DNA of 61,332 bases from Candidatus Gottesmanbacteria bacterium UBA5942 (GTDB lineage Bacteria > Patescibacteriota > Microgenomatia > UBA10105 > UBA927): contig DJCU01000042.1 in the NCBI GenBank assembly GCA_002430725.1, forward strand, positions 1-61,332. Reading direction: 5' to 3'. The translations under genes and the position numbers were made by a program. Positions 34,098-57,166 of the stretch are shown piece after piece; within the stretch, counting starts at the first letter, position 1, and each line of letters starts with the position of its first letter. The notes under the pieces are model-generated. The model was not told where the DNA came from, ran no database searches, and was given only the letters and a program-made list of their open reading frames with translations.

Positions 34098-34128
34098 ATA
34101 TGTATTGTTATTTTTTCTAAAATAGATA

Positions 34129-34159: not shown

Positions 34160-34216
34160 GATCGTATCATGTTTATGAGAGTTGTCAAGACATCTCTGAT
34201 AAACTAGTAGCACTAT

Positions 34217-35224: not shown

Positions 35225-35236
35225 AGAAAGTTATTT

Positions 35237-35440: not shown

Positions 35441-35559
35441 GGGGTACATACTTCGTTTAGAGCATATCAACAGCCTAAAATAGACGGGGTTTACAGAACG
35501 TTTTCCAGTGGTATACTGAAAATCCTAAATATAACAGGTGATGTTGCAAAGGAGGCAAT

Positions 35560-35868: not shown

Positions 35869-35894
35869 ATACTGCCTCGTTTTTTAAAAAAACA

Positions 35895-36845
35895 ATGACC
35901 TACGATGTCATCATCATCGGTTCAGGACCAGCGGGCTACACAGCCGCATTGTATACATCTCGTGCATTTCTTAAAACCCTTGTTTTATCGGGATTTGAGC
36001 CTGGTGGACAGCTTACCACCACGACCGAAGTTGATAATTATCCTGGATTTCCAAAAGGAATTATGGGACCACAGTTGGTGACAGATATGAAAGCCCAGGT
36101 AGAGCGTTTTGGCGCGGAAATAAAACAAGAGGTGGTTACAGAAATTAACAAAGAATCGGTATTTACAATTACAACGCAAAGCGGCAAATACACCGCAAAA
36201 ACAGTCATTGTGGCAACTGGCGCTTCTGCCATGTATCTTGGGTTACCAAGTGAGGAAAAGCTTAAAGGTAAGGGAGTGTCTGCATGTGCCACGTGTGACG
36301 GATTTTTTTTCCGCGGGAAAGTGGTGACGGTCATAGGAGGCGGGGATACCGCCATGGAAGAGGCAACATTTCTTACGAAATTCGCACCAAAAGTAACTGT
36401 TATTCATCGGAGAGATGAATTCCGAGCATCCGCTATCATGCTTGATAGGGCAAAAAAAGACGAGCGAATTACATTTCTTACCAACAAAATTGTTGAGGAA
36501 ATATTGGGAGAAACTGAAGTTACCGGGGTGAGACTGAAGGATGCAAAAACCGGAGAGATGATTGATTACCCCACGCAAGGCGTGTTTTTGGCAATAGGAC
36601 ATAAACCCAATACAGATTTCTTGAAAGGATTTATTGATTTAGATCCTAAAGGATATGTGGCAGTGAAACGAGCTGAAACGCCGTTGTCTCCACAAACGGA
36701 AACGAGTGTGCCCGGCGTTTTTGCAGCCGGGGATTGCGTAGATCCGCGATATCGACAGGCAATTGTTGCTGCAGGACAGGGATGCATGGCAGCAATGGAC
36801 GCGGAGAAATACTTAGAAACTCATGGCACAGAAGATCACGCTTAG
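35895..36845 (+). CDS. trxB: thioredoxin-disulfide reductase
   Basis: GSGPAG FAD motif, CATCDG redox centre, GGGDTAMEEA NADPH motif. Confidence 0.9.
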   Translation: MTYDVIIIGSGPAGYTAALYTSRAFLKTLVLSGFEPGGQLTTTTEVDNYPGFPKGIMGPQLVTDMKAQVERFGAEIKQEVVTEINKESVFTITTQSGKYTAKTVIVATGASAMYLGLPSEEKLKGKGVSACATCDGFFFRGKVVTVIGGGDTAMEEATFLTKFAPKVTVIHRRDEFRASAIMLDRAKKDERITFLTNKIVEEILGETEVTGVRLKDAKTGEMIDYPTQGVFLAIGHKPNTDFLKGFIDLDPKGYVAVKRAETPLSPQTETSVPGVFAAGDCVDPRYRQAIVAAGQGCMAAMDAEKYLETHGTEDHA

Positions 36846-38914: not shown

Positions 38915-38944
38915 TTGACACGTATGCCTACATGACACTACTAT
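38915..38944 (+). promoter_or_regulatory. candidate promoter 1 of the novel cluster
   Basis: TTGACA (38915..38920)-N18-TACTAT (38939..38944). Confidence 0.45.
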
Positions 38945-38975
38945 GGGTATAGAAACGAGCGCTGCCTCAAGCTTG

Positions 38976-39005
38976 TTGACAACCTATCTCATTGTTCGCT
39001 ACAGT
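38976..39005 (+). promoter_or_regulatory. candidate promoter 2 of the novel cluster
   Basis: TTGACA (38976..38981)-N18-TACAGT (39000..39005), just upstream of ATG 39016. Confidence 0.45.
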
Positions 39006-39015
39006 GAAGTTTAGT

Positions 39016-39348
39016 ATGAATACAATAAATCAAAGTTTTGAAAGTAGGCTTACCGATATTGTCCTCAAAATTGAAAAATCTGGTTGGACTGATGAGGACA
39101 AAGAGGCGATGTATGCCAAGATAAGTGAATATCTTCATGAGTCTGTGCTTCCCGTTATTTTGCAGTACGCTCCCAGCGAAGAAGTGAAGGCGATGGCCGC
39201 AGATGCTTCCAAGGCTACGGTTGATGCATATATTGCGCTTATGAAAAAGCCGTTAAGCGATCCTAAGATGTACGAAGAACTCAATAAGACCGTACAGGAA
39301 GTGTTAGACGATGTAGAAACTGCCCTTTCCAAAGGAGGGATAGTATGA
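39016..39348 (+). CDS. small acidic helical protein, family S (S1)
   Basis: Paralog of S2 and S3 (IEKSGWTDEDKEAMYAKI..VLPVILQYAPSEE). Its stop overlaps the next start (ATGA at 39345..39348). Confidence 0.7.
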   Translation: MNTINQSFESRLTDIVLKIEKSGWTDEDKEAMYAKISEYLHESVLPVILQYAPSEEVKAMAADASKATVDAYIALMKKPLSDPKMYEELNKTVQEVLDDVETALSKGGIV

Positions 39349-39869
39349 GCGAACAATCTATGGGTGAGGCCGCAATGAACCCGAGAAGTCGGGCAATTGC
39401 ATATCTTGAGATGAAGCAGAGTGGAAGATTTCAGGGTGGTCGGGAAAAGAATATTAAAACTCCGATTGCTCCAGAAAAAGTTCGGCGTGCAGCTCCGTTG
39501 GTAGAGACGGTGGAGGCCTACGAGCAAATGATTGATAAAATGGGACAAAAGGGTTTTGAAGGTTCACAACAGATGCTTGCAGACTTGCGTCCGGCAGCTT
39601 ACGAGGCGGCACAGGCAGTACAGTTTGGTGCGAGACTTGCGGATATTGCCCTTACCATCGCTATTCCATTTACGAGGATAGGACTTTTGGCAAAAGCGGG
39701 TGGTATATGGGCAACGATGCGATATCGTCCAGCGGAGTGGGCGGTTGGGAAAATGGCGAAAATTGGCGGTGCAGTCGTAACTTCAGAAGCAGTGGCACCT
39801 ATCGTCAATAAAATACTGCATGGCGGAGAACGGGTAAAACCAGGTGAGCCAGCTATGGCAGCCGCATAA
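39345..39869 (+). CDS. partner protein with central hydrophobic Gly/Ala-rich hairpin (B1)
   Basis: AAAGGAGGG RBS lies inside the S1 3' end. Hydrophilic N-terminus, then IALTIAIPFTRIGLLAKAGGIWATM and KIGGAVVTSEAVAPIV. Confidence 0.7.
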   Translation: MSEQSMGEAAMNPRSRAIAYLEMKQSGRFQGGREKNIKTPIAPEKVRRAAPLVETVEAYEQMIDKMGQKGFEGSQQMLADLRPAAYEAAQAVQFGARLADIALTIAIPFTRIGLLAKAGGIWATMRYRPAEWAVGKMAKIGGAVVTSEAVAPIVNKILHGGERVKPGEPAMAAA

Positions 39870-39872
39870 GCT

Positions 39873-40184
39873 ATGGAACAGCGACTTGATGACATCATCA
39901 CGCGTATAGAAGCATCTTCATTGTCTGCAGCCGAAAAAGCGCAGCTTTATGCTGCAATTTCCGGAGGATTGAAAGGCTCTGTGTGGCCGGTACTGATGAA
40001 GCTTGCTCCTCCAGGCGAAATCGATGAAATCCTCAAAGAAACTGATGAGAAGAAAAAAGTAGAGCGGTATAACACACTCATTTCAGGCGTTGTTGATACC
40101 GACAGCTCCTATGCAGAAATAGAAGAAGTAATGAATAAATTATTGGATGAAGTAGATGCTGCCTTGAAGGAGGAGCAGATATGA
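39873..40184 (+). CDS. small acidic helical protein, family S (S2)
   Basis: MEQRLDDIITRIEASSLSAAEKAQLYAAISGGLKGSVWPVLMKLAPP, clearly homologous to S3. It starts 3 nt after the B1 stop. Confidence 0.75.
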   Translation: MEQRLDDIITRIEASSLSAAEKAQLYAAISGGLKGSVWPVLMKLAPPGEIDEILKETDEKKKVERYNTLISGVVDTDSSYAEIEEVMNKLLDEVDAALKEEQI

Positions 40185-40678
40185 CCGAAGTAACTGAAAC
40201 ACCGGTACAAGCGGAGAAAGAGCCAGGAGCAGTCAAGCGTGTTGCTGAGCGGATTAGCACGTTTCTTAAAGAAACATACACCCTTAAAGGGGCAACGGCA
40301 AAAGAAGTGGCGAAATACAACACGTTGTATGCCAGTTTTACTCCGTCACAACGGGAAGAGTTGGTTGCATTTAATGAAAAAGCAATTCATAAAACCGCTA
40401 TGCGTAAGGTTGTCCGCAATTGGGTTATCACCGGTGCGGGACTTGCCGCAGGGTGGGGGATTGCGACTGGTGGACTACCTGCTATGTGGGCATTTATGAC
40501 GAAAACCGCGCCTGTTGCAATTGGTACTGGGCTAGAAGCTATACGAACATGGATGTTTGATCCTCAAAAAACGTTGCTTATAGACGTACCGAATAAATTA
40601 TCTGATATCGCAAAAAATATTGGTGACTTTTTTGCTAAGGGGCCGGGATTACCATCTAAAATTAAAATTATTCCCTAA
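40181..40678 (+). CDS. partner protein with GxxxG-rich hydrophobic hairpin (B2)
   Basis: ATGA overlap with S2 and an AGGAGG RBS. Hydrophobic segment VITGAGLAAGWGIATGGLPAMWAF. Confidence 0.7.
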   Translation: MTEVTETPVQAEKEPGAVKRVAERISTFLKETYTLKGATAKEVAKYNTLYASFTPSQREELVAFNEKAIHKTAMRKVVRNWVITGAGLAAGWGIATGGLPAMWAFMTKTAPVAIGTGLEAIRTWMFDPQKTLLIDVPNKLSDIAKNIGDFFAKGPGLPSKIKIIP

Positions 40679-40705
40679 TAGTGGGGTGCTTATAAAGGAG
40701 GCGGC

Positions 40706-41035
40706 ATGGAAGATAAGTTAAAAGCAATCGTAACACGAATAGAACAAAGCAAGCTTTCTGAAGAAGAAAAGGCAGAGCTTTATACCACAATATCTGAAGG
40801 GCTTCAGGTAACGGTCTGGCCGGTGTTACTCAAATACATGCCGAAAGAGCAGCTTGATTTCCTCGCTGCAGATCCAAAAAGTAGAGTGACAGTAGAAAGT
40901 TACTCGCAGCTCATTACTGATACCATTAAAGATGGTCAGGCGCTTACAGAAATCGACACACTCATGAATGAAGTGCTTACAGAAGTAGATAAAGCACTTT
41001 CAGAAGAGGGGATAGATCAAGTAAAGCCAGTATAA
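40706..41035 (+). CDS. small acidic helical protein, family S (S3)
   Basis: MEDKLKAIVTRIEQSKLSEEEKAELYTTISEGLQVTVWPVLLKYMPK, with an AAAGGAGG RBS. Confidence 0.75.
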   Translation: MEDKLKAIVTRIEQSKLSEEEKAELYTTISEGLQVTVWPVLLKYMPKEQLDFLAADPKSRVTVESYSQLITDTIKDGQALTEIDTLMNEVLTEVDKALSEEGIDQVKPV

Positions 41036-41063
41036 TCTTGCCCAGCAAAGAAAGGATACATCT

Positions 41064-41561
41064 ATGTCAGAAACCGCAATGAACATGGAACCACCAAAAA
41101 AGGGATTGAAAGAGGGATTGCGTCGTGCGTTTACAGTGTCTGGTGCTAAAGAAAAATGGTATCAGGATCACAAAGAAATGGTGGCAAAATACGCAGATGT
41201 GCATAATGGCTTGACCGATGAACAACGATCGGCTGTAATGGCACAAATTGAATCTGACGCCACGAAATCAGCAAAGATTGCAGTCGGAAAACGTACGGGA
41301 GCACTCGCATTGACCTCTGCGGTCGTAGGAACTGCCGGTCTATTGATTGCTAAGCCTGATTTGGCCAGACGGTTTATGGAATGGACACCAAAGATTCTCG
41401 GCAATGAGTTGAGTACTGGAAAAGTCGGAAAAGCAGTATTTACTGGTGCTGACAAAGCACACTCATTTTTAGCAGAGGTATGGACAAGGGCTGGAAGTCT
41501 TAAAGAAGCTGCGTTAGCGCGCGGGAAAGCCTTGTTTACCAAGACTCCGCCAGCAGCTTAA
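41064..41561 (+). CDS. partner protein with hydrophobic segment (B3)
   Basis: Same size (165 aa) and layout as B2. Hydrophobic segment GALALTSAVVGTAGLLIA. Confidence 0.65.
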   Translation: MSETAMNMEPPKKGLKEGLRRAFTVSGAKEKWYQDHKEMVAKYADVHNGLTDEQRSAVMAQIESDATKSAKIAVGKRTGALALTSAVVGTAGLLIAKPDLARRFMEWTPKILGNELSTGKVGKAVFTGADKAHSFLAEVWTRAGSLKEAALARGKALFTKTPPAA

Positions 41562-41647
41562 TTCTACTTCAGTTGGTATAGCCATTCATTTATATTCATG
41601 GTTGTCTCCAATAGACTTTTGTGTTCTACTGGAAAGTAGAGGAAACT

Positions 41648-42325
41648 ATGTCAGAAATTCCCAAAGGCACACAATTTGTCGGTCAGGCAGATGCACGAAA
41701 ATTGCATACAGAGCGGGTAAAACCTGCCGAAACGAAACTATCCCCCGAACAGCAAAAGGTTGCTGAGGTCATGCAAGAAAGTGGGGAAGTGCTGGAAAAA
41801 AAAGTTGTAGACGCGAGAGAAGAGGCTGGGAAAAAACTTCAAGGGTTACATGGAAAAGAGCTGGTCGATGCAGGTAAGAAACAAATGGTTCGAGGACTTT
41901 TGGATACGGTAAAAGCGCAAGTAAAATGGGCTATTGGTGGTGGCATTATTGGCGCAACTCTTGGCGCAGCCGGGAGTAGGGTGTCTGGTGGAGATATGCA
42001 TGATGCTGCCGGGCTGTTAGGTGCAACATGGGCAAGTGGCTCAGCTGCTATTGGTGGTGAGGTGTCAGCACCCCTTGCATATAATAAGAAAGTGGCAGGT
42101 TCTCAGGAATTAACCAAAGTGGGGTGGTCCGATTGGTTAATTTCGGTAGGTTCGAGATTTGCCATTGGGACGCCTATTACACTGTTAACCATGAGATATC
42201 TCCCCTTGGCCGCTGTACAACTTGAAAGTCATGTTTTTCAAGCCATTCTTAATCCGATAACCGTTCGAGGTCTACGAAATGTCATGACCGGCTTACGAGA
42301 GTTGAAAAAGGGAGTTTCAAAATGA
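41648..42325 (+). CDS. glycine-zipper membrane protein (D1)
   Basis: MSEIPKGTQF start behind a GAGGAAA RBS. Hydrophobic segments WAIGGGIIGATLGAAGSRVSGG and AAGLLGATWASGSAAIGG. Confidence 0.7.
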   Translation: MSEIPKGTQFVGQADARKLHTERVKPAETKLSPEQQKVAEVMQESGEVLEKKVVDAREEAGKKLQGLHGKELVDAGKKQMVRGLLDTVKAQVKWAIGGGIIGATLGAAGSRVSGGDMHDAAGLLGATWASGSAAIGGEVSAPLAYNKKVAGSQELTKVGWSDWLISVGSRFAIGTPITLLTMRYLPLAAVQLESHVFQAILNPITVRGLRNVMTGLRELKKGVSK

Positions 42326-42603
42326 GTTTGAAACAAAAAATTAAAGATACTACCCTGTTTACTGATGAGGATAAGATTGCTATCCTTGCTGCAGTCGACA
42401 CCTACGCGTCAGCGGATATAAAAGCGTTAGAGGGCATCATTGATGAGTTTGATATGGTGCACAGTAAAGCTGTTTCTGAGTATAAAAAATCAGTTTCAGA
42501 GGTGCTTCATGATATTGTCATAAAATCCTCTCTTGCTGACCAAAAGAAGTTACAAAGAGCAGCTTCTCTGGTGCAGAGCGGGCTAGACGAACTTCTTCAG
42601 TAA
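42322..42603 (+). CDS. small acidic helical protein, family S (S4)
   Basis: ATGA overlap with D1. N-terminal IKDTTLFTDEDKIAILAAV motif. Confidence 0.7.
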   Translation: MSLKQKIKDTTLFTDEDKIAILAAVDTYASADIKALEGIIDEFDMVHSKAVSEYKKSVSEVLHDIVIKSSLADQKKLQRAASLVQSGLDELLQ

Positions 42604-42610
42604 TTTTTTC

Positions 42611-42637
42611 TTGTCATCATCGTATGTTTGCTATAAT
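42611..42637 (+). promoter_or_regulatory. candidate internal promoter (extended -10) giving a near-leaderless ABC1 mRNA
   Basis: TTGTCA-N15-TGC-TATAAT. The hexamer ends 6 nt before ATG 42644 and there is no SD sequence in between. Confidence 0.4.
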
Positions 42638-42643
42638 CGTTGT

Positions 42644-44812
42644 ATGAATGAACAAGCGCCGAAACCGTTGCGCCATAGGGAGGTTCGTGTTTTGGAACAG
42701 CCCTCCACACCGCCCAAAAATTTAGAAGCGTCTTCGAAATTGCTTCACGCGTTAGAGCAGCAAGATGAGAAAACAATTAGAGAGGGGACAAATGCCCTAG
42801 TAGGCGAAGTGAGCAAAGATTTTGCCCAACATCATGCGCCGCTTACACCTCAGGAAACGTCATCACTTGGTCAGAAAGTAAAAGAGGCGGCTGCTAGCGC
42901 CGGAAAGCGGGTTTCAGAAACTGTTTTTTCACCGGAGATGCAGAAAGATATGGCGGAGTATAAAGATATCGTCTCCGACATAGAAAAAACATATAAGTTT
43001 TCTTCCATCGCACCCGAATTTTATGAAGCTGCGGACAAAATTCGCACGAATACAGTCTTGGAAACGCTCAGTATCTACGGTATTCAACACGCAACAAACC
43101 CCGGACATATCGAAAAGGCTGTTGCCGAAGTCGTGGGGTTTTCAGCCGCGAAAGGGAACTGGGATCGCCTAAAGCGAGCAATGACGATTGCCAAGGAAAC
43201 ATTACCCTATGTGTATGTATTGGGACTTATACCACCGCTTGTGAATGGCAGAAAGATAAGTAAACAGTTTGAAGAAAGCACCATGAAGCTCCGTTCTGCT
43301 ATTAACACTCGGGTTGCGCAGTCGGTGTTTATGCGTGATTTTGAATTTATTCATGACAAGCCGGCATCGGAAATTATGAATATTGTCGATAAAGGAAAAC
43401 AGGCGACTGTCGATCTTATGCGAATAACATATAAAGGGATGTTGCCCAAAATAGCTGCGTTAGGGGCAATTACGACTACCGAGTTTTTGATAGCACCGCC
43501 TGCGGGTATTTTGGGGCTCATTCGTATTCCTTTCCTTGCGCGGCATGGAGAACAAACCGCGCGGAAAATATTAAAAGCGCGGGCAGAAAATTTGAAACGT
43601 AAAGATCTTATCGATGCGCGCGTTATGTCCTCATTGCAGAGTTTGGAAGTGGTGCGTACGACAGACAGTATGGTGAACGCCATGGAAGAACTGCAGAGCA
43701 ATATGTCCAAAAGCGATGAGGTTGATGTTGCGGCAGATTCTTCACGAAGTGACAGAGACAAAAAGGAAGCATATTACGGCCTGGGTTATACGTACGGCAT
43801 CCCAATCGTTGCCGCAGGGTGGGAAGCACTTATGAATTGGGATGCGCTCACCAATAAAAATCCGAAAGCTGATCGTCTCAGCAACCCATCACTCAACGTG
43901 ATGCTCGCGGGCACAAGTACTATGGCACTGGAAGGGATTAATGGCGCGATGATAGAAGAAATGGTGCATGATTATACCGATAAAATACAGCCCGCACTTC
44001 AGGATATTCGGAGGATGAATGAGCTACTAGGACCATACGATCAAGTGGACACTCCAGAAGGCCCACGAGAACAATCGCGAGTACCAGTAGAAAGCTTATC
44101 AAACTTTGATATATCAATTCGTAATTTGCGATTTAAAAACATTCTTCACAACGTTTCGATGGATATTCCTCAAGGGTCGTTTGTGACAATTAAAGGTCAG
44201 TCTGGGATAGGAAAAACTACTTTTTTGCGTCATATGTTGGGGCTTTTTAGCGCGGAGGAGGGGAATGTATCCTACGGTGGGCATGATCTTAATTCAATCA
44301 AAAAATATGGAGAACATTCGATATATTCGCAATTGGCGTATGCCAATCAGAATCCTCAGTATTTTGAAAATATGACCCTTCGGGAAAACCTCTTGTTGTG
44401 GACCAAAAAACAGGTGGATACTGATAAAGTGACACAGGTGCTCCACGACTTACATTTAGATCACATTGCCGACCGTATGGATAGCAATGTGAAGCATTTT
44501 TCAGGAGGAGAGCTTCGGCGGATAGGTATTGCAAGGGCGTTACTCAAAGATCCCAAAGTGCTATTCCTTGATGAACCCACCGCTAACCTTGATGAGGCAT
44601 CTGCAAAGCAGGTGTTGGATATTGTGAAACAAATGCGGAAAACAAGACCAGACATGACAGTTGTCGCAGTGACGCACGATCCTAGCTTTGAAGGAATTGC
44701 AGAAAAGATTATAGACTTTGCAGAAGTGAATAAACCTACGGACATGAAAGCAGAATCATTGGGAAACCGCCAAGTATTTTATGCCTCAAGCGCATCTCCC
44801 TCGAAGAAGTAA
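42644..44812 (+). CDS. atypical ABC transporter fusion protein (N-terminal hydrophilic domain + weakly hydrophobic exporter-like TMD + NBD), ABC1
   Basis: Walker A GQSGIGKTT, Q-loop ANQNPQ, signature FSGGELRR, Walker B LFLDEPTANLD, H-loop VTHD. The middle region resembles a type I exporter TMD (RVAQSVFMRDFEFIHDKPASEIMNIVDKG). Confidence 0.85.
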   Translation: MNEQAPKPLRHREVRVLEQPSTPPKNLEASSKLLHALEQQDEKTIREGTNALVGEVSKDFAQHHAPLTPQETSSLGQKVKEAAASAGKRVSETVFSPEMQKDMAEYKDIVSDIEKTYKFSSIAPEFYEAADKIRTNTVLETLSIYGIQHATNPGHIEKAVAEVVGFSAAKGNWDRLKRAMTIAKETLPYVYVLGLIPPLVNGRKISKQFEESTMKLRSAINTRVAQSVFMRDFEFIHDKPASEIMNIVDKGKQATVDLMRITYKGMLPKIAALGAITTTEFLIAPPAGILGLIRIPFLARHGEQTARKILKARAENLKRKDLIDARVMSSLQSLEVVRTTDSMVNAMEELQSNMSKSDEVDVAADSSRSDRDKKEAYYGLGYTYGIPIVAAGWEALMNWDALTNKNPKADRLSNPSLNVMLAGTSTMALEGINGAMIEEMVHDYTDKIQPALQDIRRMNELLGPYDQVDTPEGPREQSRVPVESLSNFDISIRNLRFKNILHNVSMDIPQGSFVTIKGQSGIGKTTFLRHMLGLFSAEEGNVSYGGHDLNSIKKYGEHSIYSQLAYANQNPQYFENMTLRENLLLWTKKQVDTDKVTQVLHDLHLDHIADRMDSNVKHFSGGELRRIGIARALLKDPKVLFLDEPTANLDEASAKQVLDIVKQMRKTRPDMTVVAVTHDPSFEGIAEKIIDFAEVNKPTDMKAESLGNRQVFYASSASPSKK

Positions 44813-44836
44813 GCTGGGTAGGTTACAATAGGGTAT

Positions 44837-47074
44837 ATGACGGTCGAACGCTCCGTAAAACTACCGTTTCAACCAGAGCGACTTACAAAGGTCGACTCGC
44901 TTCCTTTGGTTTCGCCGAGCACAGTGGCATCAGTAGAGCCAATTGTTGCACAAGTAGTGGAAGGAAAATCTCCCGATACAAAGGATGTTTCTAAGATGGT
45001 CACAGGAGTGGCCAAAGACTTACGCGCCCAAGGTATTCCTGTGTCATCTGAGGATATACGTGAGGTACAGAATCGCGCAGATAAGAGTCTTTCAATATCG
45101 TCATCTAATCCTTCATATCAAGAAAGCGAATCAATGCCGGAGTCAGAAGCATTACCCGATATTAATCTCGATGAATATAAAGCTGTTGTGGAAGACATGG
45201 TGCACAACTATGGTGTCGATACAAAGGAGTGGGGGAAAATTAGTCATGTGTTAGGCGTGACCACCCTGATGGGAGATTTTTTGAGCGGGATGCAGCGACA
45301 ACGTTTTACGACACAAAAAGGTCGTATGCTTATGACGCATCATTTTGGTAAGGTTGCTCGAGAGTTACACCTCCAGAAATTAAGTCCAAAGGGGTTTGTT
45401 GAAAACGTGCCGCGTATGCTCAAAGAGAAGGGGAAAGGATTAGGAAAACTTGTCGTTGAAAGCGCGTGGCCATTTTTAGCAAGCCCTGTGTACTGGCTTA
45501 TGGAGCGTCAGGCGGGGAAGATGGCAGGGAAAATGTTTATGACAGAGCGAACACGTTTGCAGGAGCAAGTAAATAACCGTATCGCGGATTCATTATTTAT
45601 GCGTAATTTTGAATACCTCAATAACACACCATCGGGAGAAATGATGGAGATCATAAATCGTGGGAAAGACGCGACTATTGATCTCATGGCAGCGGTGTAT
45701 GAAGAGCTCATTCCTTTGAAATATGCCATGTGGGGCTCTATCGGAAAACAGCTTATGATAAACAGGTGGGATGCCGCAGCATCACTTGTGAAAAAGGTGA
45801 TACTGGAGGGTAGGGTGAAACCGAACGCACAGCGTATACAACGACAAAATGATGAAGCGCTCAAGCGGTGGGATATCGTCAATACGAAGCTCCTTACGAC
45901 ACTACAAGGGCTTGAAACAGTGCGGACGACTGGTAATGCAGAAGCGGGAAGTGATGTATTGTATCACGCGCTTGCAGAACGTGACTTTGTCGAAGCGGGC
46001 GGTATGCGAGAGAAGCGAAAGCAGGACGTGGCGATGAATAGGCTGCTTGACGTTATGGATATTGGTATCCCAGTGACGACCGAGGGTCTGAAGTTGTGGG
46101 GCGAGATACGAAATGGCGTCAATCAACTAGGAAATCCGTATACAGCATCGGATATGTTTAACAGCATGGCAGACGCTTGGTTTCGTATCACTGGATCTCA
46201 GGCAGAGCAGCAGTATTTGCGGCAAATGTTACTTCAAAAAACGCATTTATTTGTGAACCGGATTATTCCCGATATTCAGGATATTAAACGGATGGAGGAA
46301 GTGTTGGGGTCTTACGATCTTCTTGATCATCCACAAGGTATAAGGGAACAGGCGAGGATGCCTGTTTCTGAACTTAAAAACTTTGATATTAAAGTAGAAA
46401 ATCTCACATTTAAGCACATATTACATGGAGTTAATCTTGATATTCCACAAGGGTCTTTTGTGACAATTAAAGGGCCATCCGGCATTGGTAAAAGTACGCT
46501 ATTCCGTCATCTGGTAGGGCTTTATAGTGGGGAAGAAGGGCAAGTGCGGTACGGAGGAGCTTCGATTGATACGATTAAAAAATATGGCGACCAGTCGTTG
46601 TTTACCAAAATTGCGTATGCCAATCAAAACCCACAGTATTTTGAAGACATGACATTACGGGAAAATTTGTTGTTATGGACAAAAGAAGAGATAGGGGATG
46701 ATCGAATACAGAGCGTCCTTCGTGATCTAAAACTGGATCAGATAATCAACAGGCTTGATACGAAAACAAAACATTTTTCCGGTGGTGAAATGCGGAGAAT
46801 CGGTATCGCGCGTGCGTTATTAAAAGACCCAAAGGTATTGTTTTTGGACGAGCCCACTGCAAATTTAGATGCAGTATCTACTCGTCAGGTGATGCACATT
46901 ATCGAGGAGCTTCGGAAAAATAGACCGGATATGACAGTGGTTGCTATCACCCATGATCCAGTATTTGAAAAGATCGCTGAAAAAATAGTGGATTTTGAAA
47001 AAATAAACAAAAAACCTGAGGGAATATCGTTAGGAGACCATCAGGTGCTGGAAGCAATAGCGAAGCCCAGCTAG
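44837..47074 (+). CDS. atypical ABC transporter fusion protein, paralog of ABC1 (ABC2)
   Basis: Walker A GPSGIGKST, FSGGEMRR, LFLDEPTANLD, ITHD. It is collinear with ABC1 over the TMD-like and NBD regions. Confidence 0.85.
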   Translation: MTVERSVKLPFQPERLTKVDSLPLVSPSTVASVEPIVAQVVEGKSPDTKDVSKMVTGVAKDLRAQGIPVSSEDIREVQNRADKSLSISSSNPSYQESESMPESEALPDINLDEYKAVVEDMVHNYGVDTKEWGKISHVLGVTTLMGDFLSGMQRQRFTTQKGRMLMTHHFGKVARELHLQKLSPKGFVENVPRMLKEKGKGLGKLVVESAWPFLASPVYWLMERQAGKMAGKMFMTERTRLQEQVNNRIADSLFMRNFEYLNNTPSGEMMEIINRGKDATIDLMAAVYEELIPLKYAMWGSIGKQLMINRWDAAASLVKKVILEGRVKPNAQRIQRQNDEALKRWDIVNTKLLTTLQGLETVRTTGNAEAGSDVLYHALAERDFVEAGGMREKRKQDVAMNRLLDVMDIGIPVTTEGLKLWGEIRNGVNQLGNPYTASDMFNSMADAWFRITGSQAEQQYLRQMLLQKTHLFVNRIIPDIQDIKRMEEVLGSYDLLDHPQGIREQARMPVSELKNFDIKVENLTFKHILHGVNLDIPQGSFVTIKGPSGIGKSTLFRHLVGLYSGEEGQVRYGGASIDTIKKYGDQSLFTKIAYANQNPQYFEDMTLRENLLLWTKEEIGDDRIQSVLRDLKLDQIINRLDTKTKHFSGGEMRRIGIARALLKDPKVLFLDEPTANLDAVSTRQVMHIIEELRKNRPDMTVVAITHDPVFEKIAEKIVDFEKINKKPEGISLGDHQVLEAIAKPS

Positions 47075-47085
47075 TGTATTTATTT

Positions 47086-47093
47086 GCTATACT
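47086..47093 (+). promoter_or_regulatory. candidate extended -10 element
   Basis: TGC-TATACT sits in the same TTTGCTATA[AC]T context as 42627..42637 and ends 11 nt before ATG 47105. Confidence 0.35.
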
Positions 47094-47104
47094 CTTTTAT
47101 ATAT

Positions 47105-48112
47105 ATGGATGAAATGCCGGAAATTCCACAAAAAGAACGAGTGGTGATGTCTCCCGAGCTTGCTGAGCGTATTGATCATGCACGGATGGAGATAGCAGCG
47201 CAAGGGCAAGATCCTCAGGCAGTGGCAGGCAGAAATATTGCCGAAATGGGATTTATGAAAGCGTTATGGGAGACAGCGAAGCCACACACCAAAAAATTGC
47301 AGGAAATACAGTTTAAGCAGATAAAGGCGCAAGGAGCTGCGGTGCTGAGCCTTATCCCCATTATCGGTGAAGGAAAAGCATTTTTGAGTACAGTGGGTAT
47401 TACCAAAGGATTTGAAAAAGGAGTACAAACATTTAAAGCAGAAAAAGGACTCCGAAAGCTTAAGGCAATCGGGAAAGGGCTAGGGAGGGCGATGGCAGAA
47501 AACGCACCGGAAGCAGTGAAGGCTGGATCGTTATATGAAAAAGCACGCGCGGGTAGTGTAGTCGCAAGAGAACAAGCGGCAGCAGCGGTGAGAGCTGAAA
47601 ATATTGCAAAAAATATTGCGGTGAGTTCTTACGAAACTGCCCGCGATGCACAGAAAGCGATGAAGGGTGCTGAGAAATGGAATAAAGCTGTGACGAAAGT
47701 TGCAATAAATGAAAGTCTTGATGCAGCTGCTGCAGCTGCAGGAAAAACAGGCATGGGGAAGTGGGCGTTTAAGGAATTTGAAAAAAGAAAATTGTCCGGT
47801 ATGAAAATATTGGGAAATCCTGAGAAACGCGCAGGAATTTGGCATTTTCTCGATTTAACTCCTGATGTACCAGGTTGGCTTTCTCTTACTACTGCAGCTG
47901 GTGAAATGGTGGGAGTCCACGGAATTGATGTAATCCCTGCGGTATTACAGATGGGGAAAAATACGATTGATCAGGTGGCAACGTATGGAAAACTCACGAA
48001 GGACGTCTGGAACTTGGCAGTGACACGTGTGACGGGTAAGGGGAAGGATGTAGCGCGGGCGGCAGCAGTATTTGAGCCAAGACCACCAGTCTCAGCAGGA
48101 GGAATGGCATGA
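47105..48112 (+). CDS. hypothetical protein D2 (Ala/Lys-rich helical middle, hydrophobic IPxxG segments)
   Basis: MDEMPEIPQK (compare D1 MSEIPKG). Hydrophobic segments AAVLSLIPIIGEGKAF and GIDVIPAVLQMG. Confidence 0.65.
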   Translation: MDEMPEIPQKERVVMSPELAERIDHARMEIAAQGQDPQAVAGRNIAEMGFMKALWETAKPHTKKLQEIQFKQIKAQGAAVLSLIPIIGEGKAFLSTVGITKGFEKGVQTFKAEKGLRKLKAIGKGLGRAMAENAPEAVKAGSLYEKARAGSVVAREQAAAAVRAENIAKNIAVSSYETARDAQKAMKGAEKWNKAVTKVAINESLDAAAAAAGKTGMGKWAFKEFEKRKLSGMKILGNPEKRAGIWHFLDLTPDVPGWLSLTTAAGEMVGVHGIDVIPAVLQMGKNTIDQVATYGKLTKDVWNLAVTRVTGKGKDVARAAAVFEPRPPVSAGGMA

Positions 48113-48369
48113 ACAAAAAAATCGCATTAGTTGATCTTATCGAAGTAAGTGTTCTTTTGACCGCTGAACAAAAGTTGTTGCTATTGGATGAGTTACCGGA
48201 GTTTAATGAAAAACAAGTTGCCGCATTGGGTACATTTCTTGCCATGGAACAACAATTTATCAACGAACATAAAGATGAAATATTGACGAATATGAAAGAG
48301 ATCTATAATGACCTTCATCTTGATGAGGCACAAAAAAATCAGGTATTTGTGGGGACAGGGAAACCGTAA
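48109..48369 (+). CDS. small acidic helical protein, family S (S5)
   Basis: ATGA overlap with D2 and an AGGAGG RBS. Motif IEVSVLLTAEQKLLLLDEL. Confidence 0.7.
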   Translation: MNKKIALVDLIEVSVLLTAEQKLLLLDELPEFNEKQVAALGTFLAMEQQFINEHKDEILTNMKEIYNDLHLDEAQKNQVFVGTGKP

Positions 48370-48467
48370 GATAACTATTAACTTTTCACTTTTGACTATT
48401 AACCAGAAGTTCCCGGGTACTTTTTTTAGGTCAACTGTTACCAGTTAAGAGTTAAAGGTTAAAAAGT
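48370..48467 (+). repeat. intergenic copy of a TTAAC-rich palindromic repeat
   Basis: GATAACTATTAACTTTT and GACTATTAACCAGA are identical to 56436..56452 and to part of 56453..56473 inside the 23S intron. Confidence 0.6.
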
Positions 48468-49382
48468 ATGGCCGAAAACTATAGTCAGCAATATCGAGGT
48501 AAAGTAATCCACGTCTATCTCGGAGAAGGGAAAGCAGACCCGCCAAAACCAGAGGTAAAAAAAGCAGACACCTTGTATCACAAGCACATGCAAGAGTTGT
48601 TTGACATTATTGCCCCTGAAGCTGTTTCGGAGCGCATCGATGCGGTCAATACACAAGGTGAATTAGCGACAGCAACTGCGGAATTATTGCGGGAAAAATC
48701 ATCAGCGAGAGAGCGGTATAAAGAACACAAGGATTTTAAGCGGTTTGTTCATGAGTTAGATGGAGAATGGCGCGGAAGAGAGCTACCGCATAAATTAGAA
48801 CGGTTTTTGCTCTTTAGTGTGATGGGAAGCTTTTATACCGGTCTTGATTTTGTATCCAACTATCTTGCTGAAAAAACATTTCTTCGGAAAGACATAACGA
48901 AAATTGGTCTGGGAAAGTCTGGTATTTCATTGGATGCAGCAGACACCAATGGTAACCGTAAAGCGCTTAAAGCCGGGTGGGAGATGCTTTCTGATAAGCT
49001 TATTGGTCTGTTTTCTGATAAATCAGTCAAAGAAACGACAAATCGTGATGATGTGGCATTTGTGTCGCCAATATCTGACGCGTTGGCATCAGTCGGTAAC
49101 ATCGCAGTGTCGCTTGCTACCCCGAGTGATAAAAAGCCTATCCATTGGTTATTAAATTCGATTATTAACCCAGGTTCTATAGAGGCAGGGTTTCGTACGC
49201 TTTCTGCAATTCCATTGGCTGGAGCCAAAGTAGAAAATATGTATATAGCCCTCAATAAGCAGTTGTTGAGAGGGGAGGGTGTTTTACCGTATGGTTTTGA
49301 TGTGGCGCTTACTATGCTTGCTGCCAAAGAAACACAAAAGAAAGATGTGGAATTAGTGTTAGAGCACGTTGCGCAAAAATAG
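48468..49382 (+). CDS. hypothetical protein, family L (D3)
   Basis: Shares the blocks YTGLDFVSNYLAEKTF and IINPGSIEAGFRTLSAIPLAGAKV with D4, D5 and D6. Confidence 0.65.
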   Translation: MAENYSQQYRGKVIHVYLGEGKADPPKPEVKKADTLYHKHMQELFDIIAPEAVSERIDAVNTQGELATATAELLREKSSARERYKEHKDFKRFVHELDGEWRGRELPHKLERFLLFSVMGSFYTGLDFVSNYLAEKTFLRKDITKIGLGKSGISLDAADTNGNRKALKAGWEMLSDKLIGLFSDKSVKETTNRDDVAFVSPISDALASVGNIAVSLATPSDKKPIHWLLNSIINPGSIEAGFRTLSAIPLAGAKVENMYIALNKQLLRGEGVLPYGFDVALTMLAAKETQKKDVELVLEHVAQK

Positions 49383-49383
49383 T

Positions 49384-49701
49384 ATGAAACAAAATATCAC
49401 TCAATTTATCGATATAGTGAGGGAGAGTAAGGTATTAAACGCCGAGCAGAAGAGGGAGCTATTGGATAATCCAGCACTTTTGCCGGAAACATATCGTGAG
49501 CGGATTGCTGAAATACTTACAAACTATAATGATCGGGCACGTGCAAGAGAAATGCAGCTGGGAAGCCGAGTGAATGATGCGACAAAGCGATTTGAGCAAG
49601 CGCTTGATGAGGTTGGAGTTGCTCCCGAGGAGAAGCAACAGCTGTTAGAAAAATTGAGGCAACACACTGCCACATTGACCATGGCAGCGCCCGCGTCTTG
49701 A
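49384..49701 (+). CDS. small helical protein, family S (S6)
   Basis: Its ATG lies 1 nt after the D3 TAG. Motif VRESKVLNAEQKRELLDNP. Confidence 0.65.
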   Translation: MKQNITQFIDIVRESKVLNAEQKRELLDNPALLPETYRERIAEILTNYNDRARAREMQLGSRVNDATKRFEQALDEVGVAPEEKQQLLEKLRQHTATLTMAAPAS

Positions 49702-49737
49702 CCGTAATACGCTAAACAGAGTACTCTGATAAGAGTT

Positions 49738-50823
49738 ATGCAACACAAGGAACAATCATTTTCTCCTCCAAAAGAGTCGTGGTCTTCAGGCGCCCCAAAG
49801 CCTGAGACTGCGCAATCACGTGAGAAATCTTCGTTAAAAAAACTCGGGGATGTGGTCGGTGACGTGCTACGAGATGTGAGTACGGCAAACCAGATGGCTG
49901 CAGATAAATTTGACGGTGATAGCGCGCTTATGCGTACTGCCCGCGGTTTTGTGACGACAGGTATCGGAGTTGGGCTAGAGAAATCCATGAATTTTGTATG
50001 GGACAAGGTGTGGCAGGGTGATATTCCGTTTTATGACAAATCCAAATTCGGGACAGGGATGGCGGAAGCGATGAATAGATTTGCCCAAAAAAGCGACTTT
50101 AACGCCCGCATGTATCACCTGATGAAAGAGGGAACGCAGGATTTGTCGCTTGCCATATTTTATAATTTTCTCGCGTTCCGCTCGCAGCCATTACTCCCTA
50201 AAGCAGAGCCAAAACATTTACTCACCGCATTGACTGCAGATGCTATGGAGGCGTTTGTAAAGCCAATTTCGCCAAATCTGCCGGGTAAAGTGCAATTTGA
50301 TGCACAACGGGGGACAAACGCGATAGTGACAGAGCAAATCGAGGCGCTTGATGACAAGATGGCTCAATTTGCTTCGAGATCCTACTATGACAGAGTAAAG
50401 GATGTACAAGTGTCTCCGATGAGTGATCAAATAGAAAAATTAAAAGAGAGAAAAAAAGCGTTACAGGGAAGGATAGGGGAATTGCATGTCCCAGAGGAGG
50501 GGGGAAATCTCGAGAAATTTATCCATAAGTTTGTCGATATTTCAAATCCTGTAACAGTATTGGGAATTGATATGATTAGTGGAGGTCTTGCTACCCTTAT
50601 TCGTAACTTCAAGGAAGTACGAAAGGTACGGAAAGAAAAAGGCGGATTGGAAGGGAAAAAAGTGTTCATGCCAAAAAAAGAGAATTGGAAAGATCGCGGA
50701 GGTGATCGGAAGCCGTATAACGAAAAGCGTGACTATAGTAAAGATAAAGTATATGTAGGCAAGTCAAATTGGAAAGATAAAAAAATACAGGAGGAATATG
50801 ACCTCAAAGTCGATGATACATAA
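49738..50823 (+). CDS. hypothetical protein, family L (D4), Lys-rich C-terminus
   Basis: TTGIGVGLEKSMNFVWDKVW and ISNPVTVLGIDMISGGLATL blocks. Confidence 0.65.
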   Translation: MQHKEQSFSPPKESWSSGAPKPETAQSREKSSLKKLGDVVGDVLRDVSTANQMAADKFDGDSALMRTARGFVTTGIGVGLEKSMNFVWDKVWQGDIPFYDKSKFGTGMAEAMNRFAQKSDFNARMYHLMKEGTQDLSLAIFYNFLAFRSQPLLPKAEPKHLLTALTADAMEAFVKPISPNLPGKVQFDAQRGTNAIVTEQIEALDDKMAQFASRSYYDRVKDVQVSPMSDQIEKLKERKKALQGRIGELHVPEEGGNLEKFIHKFVDISNPVTVLGIDMISGGLATLIRNFKEVRKVRKEKGGLEGKKVFMPKKENWKDRGGDRKPYNEKRDYSKDKVYVGKSNWKDKKIQEEYDLKVDDT

Positions 50824-51097
50824 AAAAATTCAGGCAACGCGGTTGTTTTCAGATGCACAAAAAGTACAACTTTTGGTGCAGCTTACTGATGCAAGTGAGG
50901 ACGATAAAAAGAAGCTCGAGGAGGGCATTGATGCGTTTGACCGTGAGTACAAAGAAGCCATGGGAAAGCGGGGAGAAGAGATACTGGAACTCCTTACTAT
51001 GATAATGAAGGACATGCCCGAAGAAGAACGAAAAAAGAACCAAGACACGATTGACGAAATTGTGATGGGTACGGCTATTCTTCAGCCACTCAATTAG
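50798..51097 (+). CDS. small acidic helical protein, family S (S7)
   Basis: AGGAGG RBS 4 nt before the ATG. It overlaps the D4 end by 26 nt. Motif IQATRLFSDAQKVQLLVQL. Confidence 0.65.
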   Translation: MTSKSMIHKKIQATRLFSDAQKVQLLVQLTDASEDDKKKLEEGIDAFDREYKEAMGKRGEEILELLTMIMKDMPEEERKKNQDTIDEIVMGTAILQPLN

Positions 51098-51193
51098 CTC
51101 CGGATAGGTAAATAAATCTCTACTTGCTATAGGACTAGTGTTGTGGTACACTCCTGTCTAAACTTCAGCATAAGGCTGAATTTTTGTAATTTT

Positions 51194-51976
51194 ATGAACG
51201 TAGAAACTAAACCACAACGCCAATATTCCGCCTCAGAACAGGGGTTTCAGCGGATTATGAATGAAGGTCCTCACGCCCCCAAAAATGGCGGTGAATACAA
51301 ATCCGGAGATTTCGCAAAGCGCGTATTCTTTAACACCTCGATGCTTGTCGGGGGATTGGGTATCGATTTAGCAGAAAGTGCCGTTGCCAAATGGGCGATT
51401 AACAAGGTATTTGATCCTCGCATCGATGGCCTTAAAGGGACAATATCCCAGTTGGGTCACGCAAAGCCGGAAGGATTTGAAGACAAAATTAGCGCCGCAA
51501 AAGACAGTATCCGCACACAGCATGCTATAAAAGAGGGTGTCAAGTTTATCGAAGAGTGGGGTTCTGACTCTGCTTACGTAGGTGCCACCAACGCGCTTGC
51601 ACGCACGCTCACCGGTGTGCCTGAAGCAACCTATGTTAAAGGAACGGCTGAAGTCGTTTCTGACTGGGCAAATGCAATCATGCAGGTATTCGGCGGCGAC
51701 AAAAAAGTGACGCTGTTGAAATACAAAGGACTCCCACTGTTTGCCACCGAAATGCAGAATTTTGTCAATCCGACCGATGTCGAAGCGGTATTTCGCTTGC
51801 TTGCCGAAATTCCGGGTGTCGGATGGGTGAAAAATAAGCTTGACCACACGGTTGAGCACTCAAAAGTGGTCAAATACGCCAATATTGCTGCCTCAAAAGG
51901 GTTACTTGGCTACCACATTACGAACGCCGGTCAAAAGGCGATCGATAGGGCTGTGGCAGAAGCGCTCGCCAAATAA
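51194..51976 (+). CDS. hypothetical protein, family L (D5)
   Basis: GGLGIDLAESAVAKWAINKVF and FVNPTDVEAVFRLLAEIPGVGWV blocks. ATG 51194 is preferred to GTG 51143. Confidence 0.65.
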   Translation: MNVETKPQRQYSASEQGFQRIMNEGPHAPKNGGEYKSGDFAKRVFFNTSMLVGGLGIDLAESAVAKWAINKVFDPRIDGLKGTISQLGHAKPEGFEDKISAAKDSIRTQHAIKEGVKFIEEWGSDSAYVGATNALARTLTGVPEATYVKGTAEVVSDWANAIMQVFGGDKKVTLLKYKGLPLFATEMQNFVNPTDVEAVFRLLAEIPGVGWVKNKLDHTVEHSKVVKYANIAASKGLLGYHITNAGQKAIDRAVAEALAK

Positions 51977-52053
51977 TCTCCCTAAATTCTTGTTTGTTAT
52001 AGGCTAATTTCTATGGTATAATTTTACATAATGCCATAGGGCATTCTTTTTGT

Positions 52054-52896
52054 ATGACGACCAAAGAAACACCACAAGCCATGCTCAAAGACCCAGTCGC
52101 AAGCTGGAAGCAGGATTTGGTTGCCCACGAGCGGAAGCAGGCAGAAAAGCTCTATCAGGTGGGCGAGTTTTCCCCGTATACCAAAGAGGCGAGGCCGATT
52201 AAATGGGATGCGTTTCGTGACGCAAGTTACGAATGGATATCGAGTCCTGGTACATTCCTCAAAAATATCGGAACGCATGTCCGGAATATCGACACGGATT
52301 TTCGTGGCGGGCGGGATTATGGAAACGCGGGCGAACGTCTCGAGCGGGTGAAAGCGTATGCGGGGATCATCGCACTATTTACCGCGTTTGATGCTGCTAC
52401 AAGCATGCCTCTCATTGGTCTGAAGAAGACAGAAAGAAAAGGAGAAGGACTTACCGCGGATGATCACCGATATAATGCCAATCTTCTTTCATTTATGAAA
52501 CTTATCGATGTACTAAATGATAAATATGCAACAGCATTGGGTAATATGTACGTGGAGGATAAAACGGGGAAGCGGGGATTTATCCATGAGATGTCAGATA
52601 AAGGCGCAGACACCATACAGACAGGATTTGATAAGACAAATGATTTGGTAAATGGTGCAACCCTTGAAGGATATCTTCGTATCATATCCCAGATACCGGT
52701 TGCTGGAGCATTGTTTGAGCAGGGAGTGACCCGAATTTCGGGCTGGCAGGAGAAATCTTCTCTTCATACAGCAACAGGAAAAATGATCTACATGGCGTTG
52801 GGTATTTATATAAAACATATGCGCAGAGCAGTCACTGAAGATGGTAAATCCGCAAAGTTGATATCCCCGGATGTCATTGCCAGATTTGGATTGTGA
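52054..52896 (+). CDS. hypothetical protein, family L (D6)
   Basis: LVNGATLEGYLRIISQIPVAGALF block. A TGG-TATAAT extended -10 lies at 52014..52022 upstream. Confidence 0.65.
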   Translation: MTTKETPQAMLKDPVASWKQDLVAHERKQAEKLYQVGEFSPYTKEARPIKWDAFRDASYEWISSPGTFLKNIGTHVRNIDTDFRGGRDYGNAGERLERVKAYAGIIALFTAFDAATSMPLIGLKKTERKGEGLTADDHRYNANLLSFMKLIDVLNDKYATALGNMYVEDKTGKRGFIHEMSDKGADTIQTGFDKTNDLVNGATLEGYLRIISQIPVAGALFEQGVTRISGWQEKSSLHTATGKMIYMALGIYIKHMRRAVTEDGKSAKLISPDVIARFGL

Positions 52897-53086: not shown

Positions 53087-53113
53087 AATCCCGCATAGAA
53101 GGCGGGATTTTTT
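53087..53113 (+). terminator. rho-independent terminator-like hairpin
   Basis: AATCCCGC-atagaag-GCGGGATT followed by a T-run. Confidence 0.55.
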
Positions 53114-53194
53114 GTCCCTTTTTTGCACATTTAACAATTGGATCAACGGAGAGAACTGCTCAGGTTCGCTTTCGGATCTTTCCTGAGTAGGGAA

Positions 53195-53267
53195 GGGCCC
53201 GAAGTTTACCTGGTTGAACGCTTCATTTGCAATGAAGAGGCAGGCGGTTCGACTCCGCCCGGGTCCA
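53195..53267 (+). tRNA. tRNA-Ala (UGC); CCA not encoded
   Basis: Cloverleaf with GGGCCCG/CGGGUCC acceptor stem and the G3:U70 Ala identity pair. Anticodon loop UUUGCAA, T arm GGCGG-UUCGACU-CCGCC, discriminator A. Confidence 0.9.
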
Positions 53268-53281
53268 CATAGCTCGTGTAT

Positions 53282-53340
53282 CGAGGATACCTATATATAA
53301 TATGTATCCTCGCGACAAGAGCGCGAGTTGCTCTTTAACA
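53282..53340 (+). promoter_or_regulatory. rRNA antitermination-like boxB hairpin plus boxA
   Basis: Hairpin CGAGGATAC..GTATCCTCG at 53282..53312, then TGCTCTTTAACA at 53329..53340, which matches the rrn boxA consensus. Confidence 0.6.
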
Positions 53341-57106: not shown

Positions 57107-57166
57107 GGGGACTCAAAGATAAAACGAAAGCGTTTATTATTTCATTTGAAAGTTGTGTTAAGCCTG

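Follow-up and report, generated by a model that had tools for sequence, protein, structure and literature searches.

A pair of ABC proteins with polar, exporter-like helical domains in a conserved gene cluster of Patescibacteria

The DNA analysed here, a stretch of 61,332 nucleotides from Candidatus Gottesmanbacteria bacterium UBA5942 (contig DJCU01000042.1; "the window" below always means this whole stretch), carries two adjacent genes, ABC1 and ABC2, for proteins of the ATP-binding cassette (ABC) kind. Both proteins have complete ATPase motifs, and in both the nucleotide-binding domain (NBD) is preceded by a helical domain that, from sequence comparison and modelling, appears to be a diverged exporter transmembrane domain (TMD; ABC_membrane, type I exporter or type IV fold) and that is polar in the parts that would cross a bilayer. 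The pair stands within a run of 18 same-strand (+) genes of about 14 kb (positions 39016–52896, approximately), between a glutamate dehydrogenase gene and a tRNA-Ala/23S rRNA region. We propose, at a probability of roughly 0.45 and from sequence and a structural model, that ABC1 and ABC2 may form a heterodimeric, peripherally anchored mechanochemical ABC motor that serves this 18-gene cluster.

ATPase domains, helical domains and N-terminal extensions

ABC1 (42644..44812, +) encodes 722 amino acids, arranged as an N-terminal extension (about residues 1–100), a helical domain (about 103–470) and a C-terminal NBD, an assignment that draws on the open reading frame (ORF), the ABC_tran match, paralogy and orthologs. 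Its start is taken as the ATG at 42644, the mechanical ORF beginning earlier at a TTG (42611); the ortholog on the related contig L001 has 721 amino acids. ABC2 (44837..47074, +) encodes 745 amino acids, and its ORF is matched by full-length homologs at 45–99% identity. Each chain contains one ABC_tran domain in Pfam (ABC1 residues 501–647, E 1.2e-32; ABC2 residues 529–675, E 1.6e-32) and nothing else of substance, and the two proteins are 45% identical over 525 amino acids, from residue 202 of ABC1 and 227 of ABC2 onward (BLASTP).

The NBDs of ABC1 (44144..44728, +; Pfam, NCBIfam and alignment) and ABC2 (46388..47005, +; the same sources and the model) have intact motifs. A reading made earlier from the sequence alone had listed complete motif sets in both proteins and judged the two NBDs roughly two-thirds identical by eye, and it was right on both counts: the alignment contains GQSGIGKTT/GPSGIGKST, AYANQNPQ, FSGGE[LM]RR, LFLDEPT, ANLD and THD, and identity over three blocks is 58–78%, about two-thirds. 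The signature motif is FSGGE, not LSGGQ. The key residues K552, Q597, S648-G649-G650-E651, D671-E672, D678 and H706 (ABC2 numbering) are invariant in all 27 aligned sequences. NCBIfam matches stay at the level of the NBD and fall far short of every family cut-off. The best are CydD and CydC; the pair reaches 137–143 bits against a CydD cut-off of 435 and 132–135 bits against 329 for CydC, and the match to CydDC covers the NBD end only.

The helical domain was examined chiefly in ABC2 (residues 113–490; 45173..46306, +), by hydropathy, modelling, Foldseek and hhalign. In the AlphaFold model, built on a 27-sequence alignment (mean predicted local distance difference test score, pLDDT, 72.9; predicted template modelling score, pTM, 0.52), six long helices precede the NBD: an elbow helix at 113–125 is followed by equivalents of the transmembrane (TM) helices at 129–176, 184–255, 266–308, 310–365, 368–426 and 437–490. 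The top 50 listed Foldseek matches of this model in the PDB are all full-length type I exporters, with TmrAB (9e-18), Sav1866, Atm1, MsbA, CydDC, McjD and PCAT1 among them, over 578–654 aligned columns and with target-normalised TM-scores of 0.40–0.60; MsbA, Sav1866 and PCAT are among the folds with which comparison had been suggested at the outset.

Profile comparison agrees with the model. Full-length hhalign alignment to ordinary exporters runs from the motif of the first intracellular loop (ICL1) through the C-terminus and places RIADSLFMRNFE... opposite the ICL1 motif and QGLETVRT opposite that of ICL2. The exporter-like TMD and intracellular-loop pattern first recognised by eye is likewise upheld: the stretches quoted for it, RVAQSVFMRDFEFIHD.../RIADSLFMRNFEYLNN... 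and QSLEVVRTT/QGLETVRTT, are present, and their counterparts in aligned ordinary exporters are the ICL1 and ICL2 regions. These regions are the most conserved parts outside the NBD, and the three hairpin tips are the least; invariant or near-invariant residues of the helical domain concentrate in VNNRIADSLFMRNFEFL and LQGLETVRT.GNAEAGSD, that is, in the coupling regions. A further link passes through a group of distant relatives, which the profile of the non-NBD part matches at E 1e-33 by hhalign (beginning at the elbow helix, ABC2 residue 108) and with values as low as 5e-29 in a HMMER library search. Four of 10 distant members tested exceed the Pfam ABC_membrane gathering score of 28 (37.9, 37.6, 29.6 and 28.4 bits), and the group aligns to ordinary exporters over TM3–TM6. 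Relative to this group, the TM1–TM2 hairpin of ABC2 carries an insertion of about 35 residues in the profile alignment. Because the AlphaFold model, the Foldseek matches and the transitive profile homology agree, we take the helical domain to be a diverged exporter TMD.

The fold is combined with an unusual polarity. Hydropathy was scored as means of 19-residue Kyte-Doolittle windows with a threshold of at least 1.6, and 12 ordinary exporters served as controls. By this measure 24 of the 27 family sequences have no window at or above the threshold and the other three have one, compared with 5–10 runs in each control exporter. ABC1 has a single segment of at least 1.6 (residues 281–299) and three weak ones, and ABC2 has no window above 1.2, so that the first impression of a few weakly hydrophobic segments in place of six helices was accurate. 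In the 68 family representatives (see below), the number of hydrophobic stretches is zero or, as a rule, one, most often placed at the TM3–TM4 tip. In hhalign-aligned columns where exporters average more than 2.0 (mean 3.22) the family mean is 0.90; by helix, the family means are 0.1–0.5 for the TM3/4 equivalents and about -0.1 to -0.3 for TM5/6, against 1.2–1.9 in exporters. The membrane-equivalent stretches of ABC2 are rich in Lys, Glu, Arg and Gln, and the alignment shows polar insertions at all three hairpin tips, which vary in length and reach about 30 residues.

The sole clearly hydrophobic stretch in the pair is ABC1 residues 266–299 (MLPKIAALGAITTTEFLIAPPAGILGLIRIPFLA; 43439..43540, +; Kyte-Doolittle maximum 1.79), which has Pro-Pro at its turn, lies at the tip of the TM3–TM4 hairpin and is a candidate membrane anchor. 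This 34-residue hairpin is kept in the ABC1 orthologs (Kyte-Doolittle 1.79, 1.64 and 1.43), is hydrophobic in four of four genomes examined, and occupies the position at which the hydrophobic hairpin of distant relatives is usually found. The picture that the sequences give is one of two intact ATPase sites and conserved coupling regions, joined to would-be bilayer-crossing parts that are polar and tolerant of insertions and deletions. The family-wide polarity, the polar tip insertions and the single ABC1 hairpin make a complete 12-helix bilayer pathway very unlikely; ABC1 could plausibly provide a peripheral or hairpin anchor.

The N-terminal extension is shorter than it first seemed. The model and the profile alignment to distant relatives give it about 108 amino acids in ABC2 and about 100 in ABC1, and assign ABC2 residues 113–255, approximately, to the elbow helix and the TM1 and TM2 equivalents. 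The hydrophilic and diverged N-terminus of about 200 residues described by the sequence-only reading is therefore real in its hydrophilicity and divergence, with the true extension making up some 100–110 residues of it and the TM1–TM2 equivalents the rest. In ABC2 the extension (residues 1–108; 44837..45160, +) is predicted from the model, alignment and a hidden Markov model (HMM) search to comprise a small helical domain at residues 27–85 and a disordered linker at 86–112; a local HMM search found it conserved among orthologs and weakly similar to the N-termini of ABC1-type paralogs. The comparison with the C39-like domains of type I secretion ABC transporters did not survive. The first 500 (ABC1) and 528 (ABC2) residues match no Pfam family even at E<=10, Peptidase_C39 included; a profile of the non-NBD part has no PDB sequence match and finds no exporter there either; the modelled unit at 27–85 is all-helical and followed by a linker; and no partner of the HlyD or membrane fusion protein type is encoded nearby. 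A C39-like N-terminal domain was rejected on these grounds.

The cluster and its distribution

Apart from the ABC pair, the cluster encodes seven small proteins and nine larger partners. The small proteins form two families, A (three copies, about 105 amino acids, acidic) and B (four copies, 86–110 amino acids), and have net charges of -4 to -10, with one copy at +1; the larger partners, all but one, have net charges of +4 to +14. The partners are mostly basic, 165–361 amino acids in length, with weakly hydrophobic stretches rich in Gly and Ala, and they lack a signal peptide; three of them constitute family C, and two of those upstream of the ABC pair are paralogs of each other. In several cases a small gene overlaps the one after it by 4 nt.

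Upstream of ABC1, the cluster opens with family A copy 1 (39016..39348, +), an acidic protein whose stop codon overlaps the next start by 4 nt, and a basic 174-amino-acid partner (39345..39869, +) with a weakly hydrophobic stretch at residues 98–116. Family A copy 2 (39873..40184, +), also acidic, overlaps by 4 nt the gene of a basic 165-amino-acid partner (40181..40678, +) that has the Gly/Ala-rich segment VITGAGLAAGWGIATGG and is a paralog of the product of the gene at 41064. Acidic family A copy 3 (40706..41035, +) precedes that paralog (41064..41561, +), a basic 165-amino-acid partner with a hydrophobic stretch at residues 78–96 (Kyte-Doolittle 1.74). A basic protein with glycine-zipper-like stretches (41648..42325, +), which probably starts at the ATG of MSEIPKG, and a small acidic family B protein of the B3 type (42322..42603, +) complete this half, the latter immediately upstream of ABC1.

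Immediately downstream of ABC2 lies the gene of a basic Ala/Gly/Lys-rich protein (47105..48112, +), probably starting at the ATG of MDEMPEIPQKE, which has orthologs in all three related loci. It is followed by a small acidic protein of family B1 (48109..48369, +), a helical protein of 304 amino acids that belongs to family C and is the best-conserved accessory protein (48468..49382, +), a small protein of family B2 (49384..49701, +), a basic 361-amino-acid protein with orthologs in three of three related loci (49738..50823, +), a small acidic protein of family B3 (50798..51097, +), and two family C paralogs (51194..51976 and 52054..52896, both +), the second being the last gene of the cluster. 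The 304-amino-acid protein contains the invariant motifs EWRGRELP, GNR.A..G, TN...F.S..S and NP..IE...R....P..G..E, which, as sequences, resemble a functional or enzymatic site more than they do a rapidly evolving effector. The best match of any accessory protein, that of family B to ribosome recycling factor (E 0.001), was rejected as helical-composition noise. Two promoter-like sites upstream of the first gene (38915..39005, +) are consensus matches only, with counts not above those in shuffled sequence, and a terminator-like hairpin with a T-run past the last gene (53087..53118, +) is likewise a consensus match only.

Most proteins of the cluster (38992–52896), ABC1 and ABC2 included, begin M-[STADN]-E with a Pro inside about 10 residues; examples of these starts are MSEQSMG, MSETAMNMEPPKKG, MSEIPKG, MDEMPEIPQKE, MAENYSQQ, MTVERSVKLP and MNEQAPKP. 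Such a start might be a shared tag or the organism's usual N-terminal bias.

The cluster is collinear gene by gene on three related contigs (L001, L082 and L084), where ABC2 is 54–71% identical to that of the window and the ABC1 orthologs are 82% (L001), 62% (L084) and 46% (L082) identical. The adjacency of the ABC paralogs is kept in every relative examined. Two of the related loci have a third ABC paralog (643 or 775 amino acids) and an extra gene of 254–275 amino acids between the ABC genes (L001 7230–9981; L084 3415–5742 and 9157–9984), both absent from the window, and the possible dimers therefore differ between genomes. The family is rare: an exhaustive HMMER search with the non-NBD profile recovered 68 proteins among 1.84 billion representatives, and family-specific patterns found four loci among 241 million metagenome records. 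All close relatives found belong to the Patescibacteria, the closest being called "Patescibacteria group bacterium" where named, and one related contig comes from Hainich groundwater. The accessory families are equally narrow (22 and 66 clusters, each either unnamed or "hypothetical"). A contig scan with a full-length alignment (NBD peptides IGIARALLK and DEPTANLD) returned only unrelated ABC proteins, at 30–37% identity and over the NBD only, and a full-text literature search found no description of such proteins.

The distant relatives, of about 770–790 amino acids, are encoded by single genes in other contexts (L087 10001–12349, P0127; L086 1065–3386, P0117), in L087 with genes for aspartokinase, PEPCK, LeuA and two-component proteins around them. 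They have an N-terminal extension of about 225 amino acids, pass Pfam ABC_membrane and retain only one hydrophobic hairpin. Since these proteins combine one hairpin with other gene contexts, the polar-exporter architecture may extend beyond Patescibacteria. A 766-amino-acid neighbour of the L087 relative was considered as a partner and rejected as unrelated to the family.

Possible function of the ABC pair

ABC exporters are defined by their transmembrane domain. ABC1 and ABC2 are a variant of the ABC exporter kind that falls outside every characterised exporter family, because hydrophobic TM helices were tested for and not found and no family-level cut-off was reached. A standard six-TM exporter, or clear membership of a characterised family, had been named beforehand as the finding that would speak against an unusual machine; what was found is the exporter fold, with neither the hydrophobic six-helix set nor a score at any NCBIfam family cut-off. 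The pair shares with TmrAB, TM287/288, Sav1866, MsbA and Atm1 a helical domain followed by an NBD, six long helices with ICL1 and ICL2, and an NBD of the transporter type, and with TmrAB and TM287/288 also the arrangement as two adjacent paralogous half-size genes. It differs from these type I exporters in that the membrane-spanning thirds are polar and an N-terminal domain of about 100 amino acids is added. TmrAB and TM287/288 have one degenerate ATP site, whereas both sites are canonical in ABC1/ABC2.

We infer that ABC1 and ABC2 would pair as a heterodimer, with the third paralog as an alternative partner in some relatives; a heterodimer had been proposed from the start, and the adjacency of the paralogs in every relative examined makes it plausible. 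The heterodimer would form no 12-helix translocation pathway. It would lie against the membrane on the cytoplasmic side, attached at most by the TM3–TM4 hairpin and the other weakly hydrophobic tips of ABC1, and the ATP-driven closing and opening of its helical domains would act as a mechanical device. Probable targets are the products of the co-conserved operon, including the seven acidic helical proteins of about 100 amino acids, several of them translationally coupled to basic partners. The most likely job would be to take the partners from the small proteins and then to deliver, insert or release these partners at the membrane, with docking on the diverged N-terminal domains. The earlier idea that these domains may dock different cargo or adaptors gains some plausibility from the conserved cluster, in which small acidic and larger basic proteins are paired, a feature absent from that reading.

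Several comparisons illustrate what such a motor might resemble. PCAT1 and HlyB likewise join an exporter core to an extra cytoplasmic domain at the N-terminus, a possible docking site for cargo, and are accompanied by several small co-encoded proteins; ABC1/ABC2 differ from them in having no C39 similarity, no membrane fusion protein (no HlyD-family partner among the 16 accessory proteins in Pfam or NCBIfam), a transmembrane part that is not hydrophobic and no obvious leader-peptide features. ABCE1, ABCF/EttA/Uup, UvrA and Rad50/SMC are ABC ATPases that do mechanical work without a membrane pathway, but they are built with tandem NBDs or coiled coils and lack a helical domain of the exporter type, while ABC1 and ABC2 each have one NBD behind a domain apparently derived from ABC_membrane. 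In MacB, LolCDE and FtsEX, ATP-driven movement is passed to partners and no substrate passes through the TMD, the principle proposed here, although those systems have the FtsX/MacB fold, true TM helices and separate or N-terminal NBDs, and Pfam finds no FtsX domain in ABC1/ABC2. The coupling of small acidic helical proteins to larger basic ones with hydrophobic stretches recalls, as an analogy only, type III chaperones, type VI Eag proteins and PE/PPE proteins, from which the cluster proteins differ in having no sequence or profile similarity to them and an associated ATPase of another class.

A set of observations weighs against a membrane-tethered motor serving the cluster. The helical-domain homology depends on the model and on transitive links, because a direct Pfam match is absent (ABC_membrane is unmatched by whole ABC1/ABC2 at E<=0.01 and by their first 500/528 residues at E<=10) and TMD-only hhalign alignment to the 12 ordinary exporters is weak (P 0.0095). 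Hydropathy was assessed by Kyte-Doolittle windows only, and the 34-residue ABC1 hairpin could be a true pair of transmembrane helices. As to the partners, the 16 accessory proteins have no significant Pfam, NCBIfam, PADLOC or PDB profile match, the model of the 304-amino-acid family C protein is unreliable (pLDDT 53), and a shared operon is no proof that the cluster proteins are clients. The cluster encodes no membrane channel or recognisable secretion component, so an export route is missing.

A bolder version of the same proposal would make the pair the first ABC exporter fold outside the bilayer, a soluble or monotopic heterodimeric motor in which a TMD-derived, cytoplasmic, ATP-driven clamp powers a lineage-specific apparatus made up of chaperone-like and membrane-active proteins of episymbiotic Patescibacteria and possibly delivers proteins into their own or a host membrane; we consider this doubtful.

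Among other explanations, a fully cytosolic non-transport ABC ATPase with no membrane tie, such as a chaperone, disaggregase, regulator or assembly factor, accords with the polar helical domain and with the lack of a signal peptide or strong transmembrane segment in most cluster proteins; the conservation of the hydrophobic hairpin in the ABC1 lineage and the distant relatives, however, and the Gly/Ala-rich hydrophobic stretches of several partners point toward a membrane, and we regard a purely cytosolic role as unlikely. A conventional membrane-embedded heterodimeric exporter of lipids, peptides or drugs, its helices of unusually low hydrophobicity stabilised in the bilayer by packing or by partner proteins, would account for the exporter fold and intact coupling regions, for the label "ATP-binding protein/permease" that NCBI gives to relatives, and for the four weakly to clearly hydrophobic stretches of ABC1 at the expected tips. 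It is nonetheless quite unlikely given that ABC2 and nearly all orthologs have no window above 1.6 (many none above 1.2), that Lys, Glu, Arg and Gln abound in the membrane-equivalent stretches of ABC2, that the column means fall to the values given above in place of 1.2–1.9, and that the tips accept polar insertions of up to about 30 residues. The alternative first offered by the sequence-only reading, a non-transport mechanotransducing ABC, is a better fit to this evidence than a conventional exporter.

Lipid synthesis is absent from many Patescibacteria, and a machine for lipid scavenging might be imagined in which lipid is extracted or loaded at the inner leaflet by the exporter-like chamber, with amphipathic Ala/Lys-rich cluster proteins as the carriers. 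The closest structural matches do include lipid flippases such as MsbA, and several cluster proteins are basic, helical and Ala/Gly/Lys-rich, but Pfam and NCBIfam find no lipid-binding or lipid-metabolism domain anywhere in the cluster and composition is the sole basis of the idea, which makes this explanation improbable. An artefactual likeness to exporters, or decay of the genes as transporter remnants in a reduced genome, might be read from the absent direct ABC_membrane match and the pTM of 0.52, and is highly improbable in view of intact ORFs in all relatives, many helical-domain residues that are invariant across sequences down to 37% identity, independent links to ABC_membrane and conserved synteny. 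An anti-phage defence ATPase of the ABC/OLD type was rejected as well, PADLOC giving generic NBD matches only (mad3, mad8, AriA) and none for the partners.

If the proposed peripheral motor is real, a conserved family with the exporter fold, its coupling helices, two live ATPase sites and a polar membrane part would mean that a non-transport motor can be made from this fold, and the proteins would offer a natural water-soluble model for NBD-to-helix coupling. The cluster of about 14 kb, set against relatives' contigs of about 1.2 Mb, is maybe 1% of a genome; because this is such an investment in a reduced genome, it suggests an important lineage-specific function. Sixteen of the 18 cluster genes are complete orphans, and the ABC pair is the only handle on the cluster with a known class of biochemical activity.

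Surroundings of the cluster

The window is a chromosomal piece of a member of the Patescibacteria (Candidate Phyla Radiation, CPR), with housekeeping genes for LeuRS-type and TyrRS synthetases, FtsH, RecF, an ATP-dependent DNA ligase and glutamate dehydrogenase, three tRNA genes, and a 23S rRNA gene with a group I intron followed by 5S. Beyond the cluster (53195–57109) lie tRNA-Ala, the 23S rRNA gene with its group I intron at 56189–56553, and 5S. The window has no 16S gene upstream of 23S-5S, where the ABC cluster stands instead, and for this reason 16S appears to be unlinked from 23S-5S. Two tRNA-Met (CAU) genes stand about 1 kb apart on opposite strands (5317–5391, -; 6400–6470, +).

Upstream of the cluster is a copper/redox gene group (31209–36845) that comprises a P-type ATPase with an HMA domain (31209–33509, -), a DsbD_2-cupredoxin fusion (34217–35224), a thioredoxin (35560–35868) and a thioredoxin reductase-like protein (35895–36845); these genes are likewise upstream of the cluster in L082. 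Fic/DOC-domain proteins are encoded in the window (18753–19796) and beside the cluster in a relative (L084 17180–18220), and AbiEii-family genes adjoin the cluster in L084.

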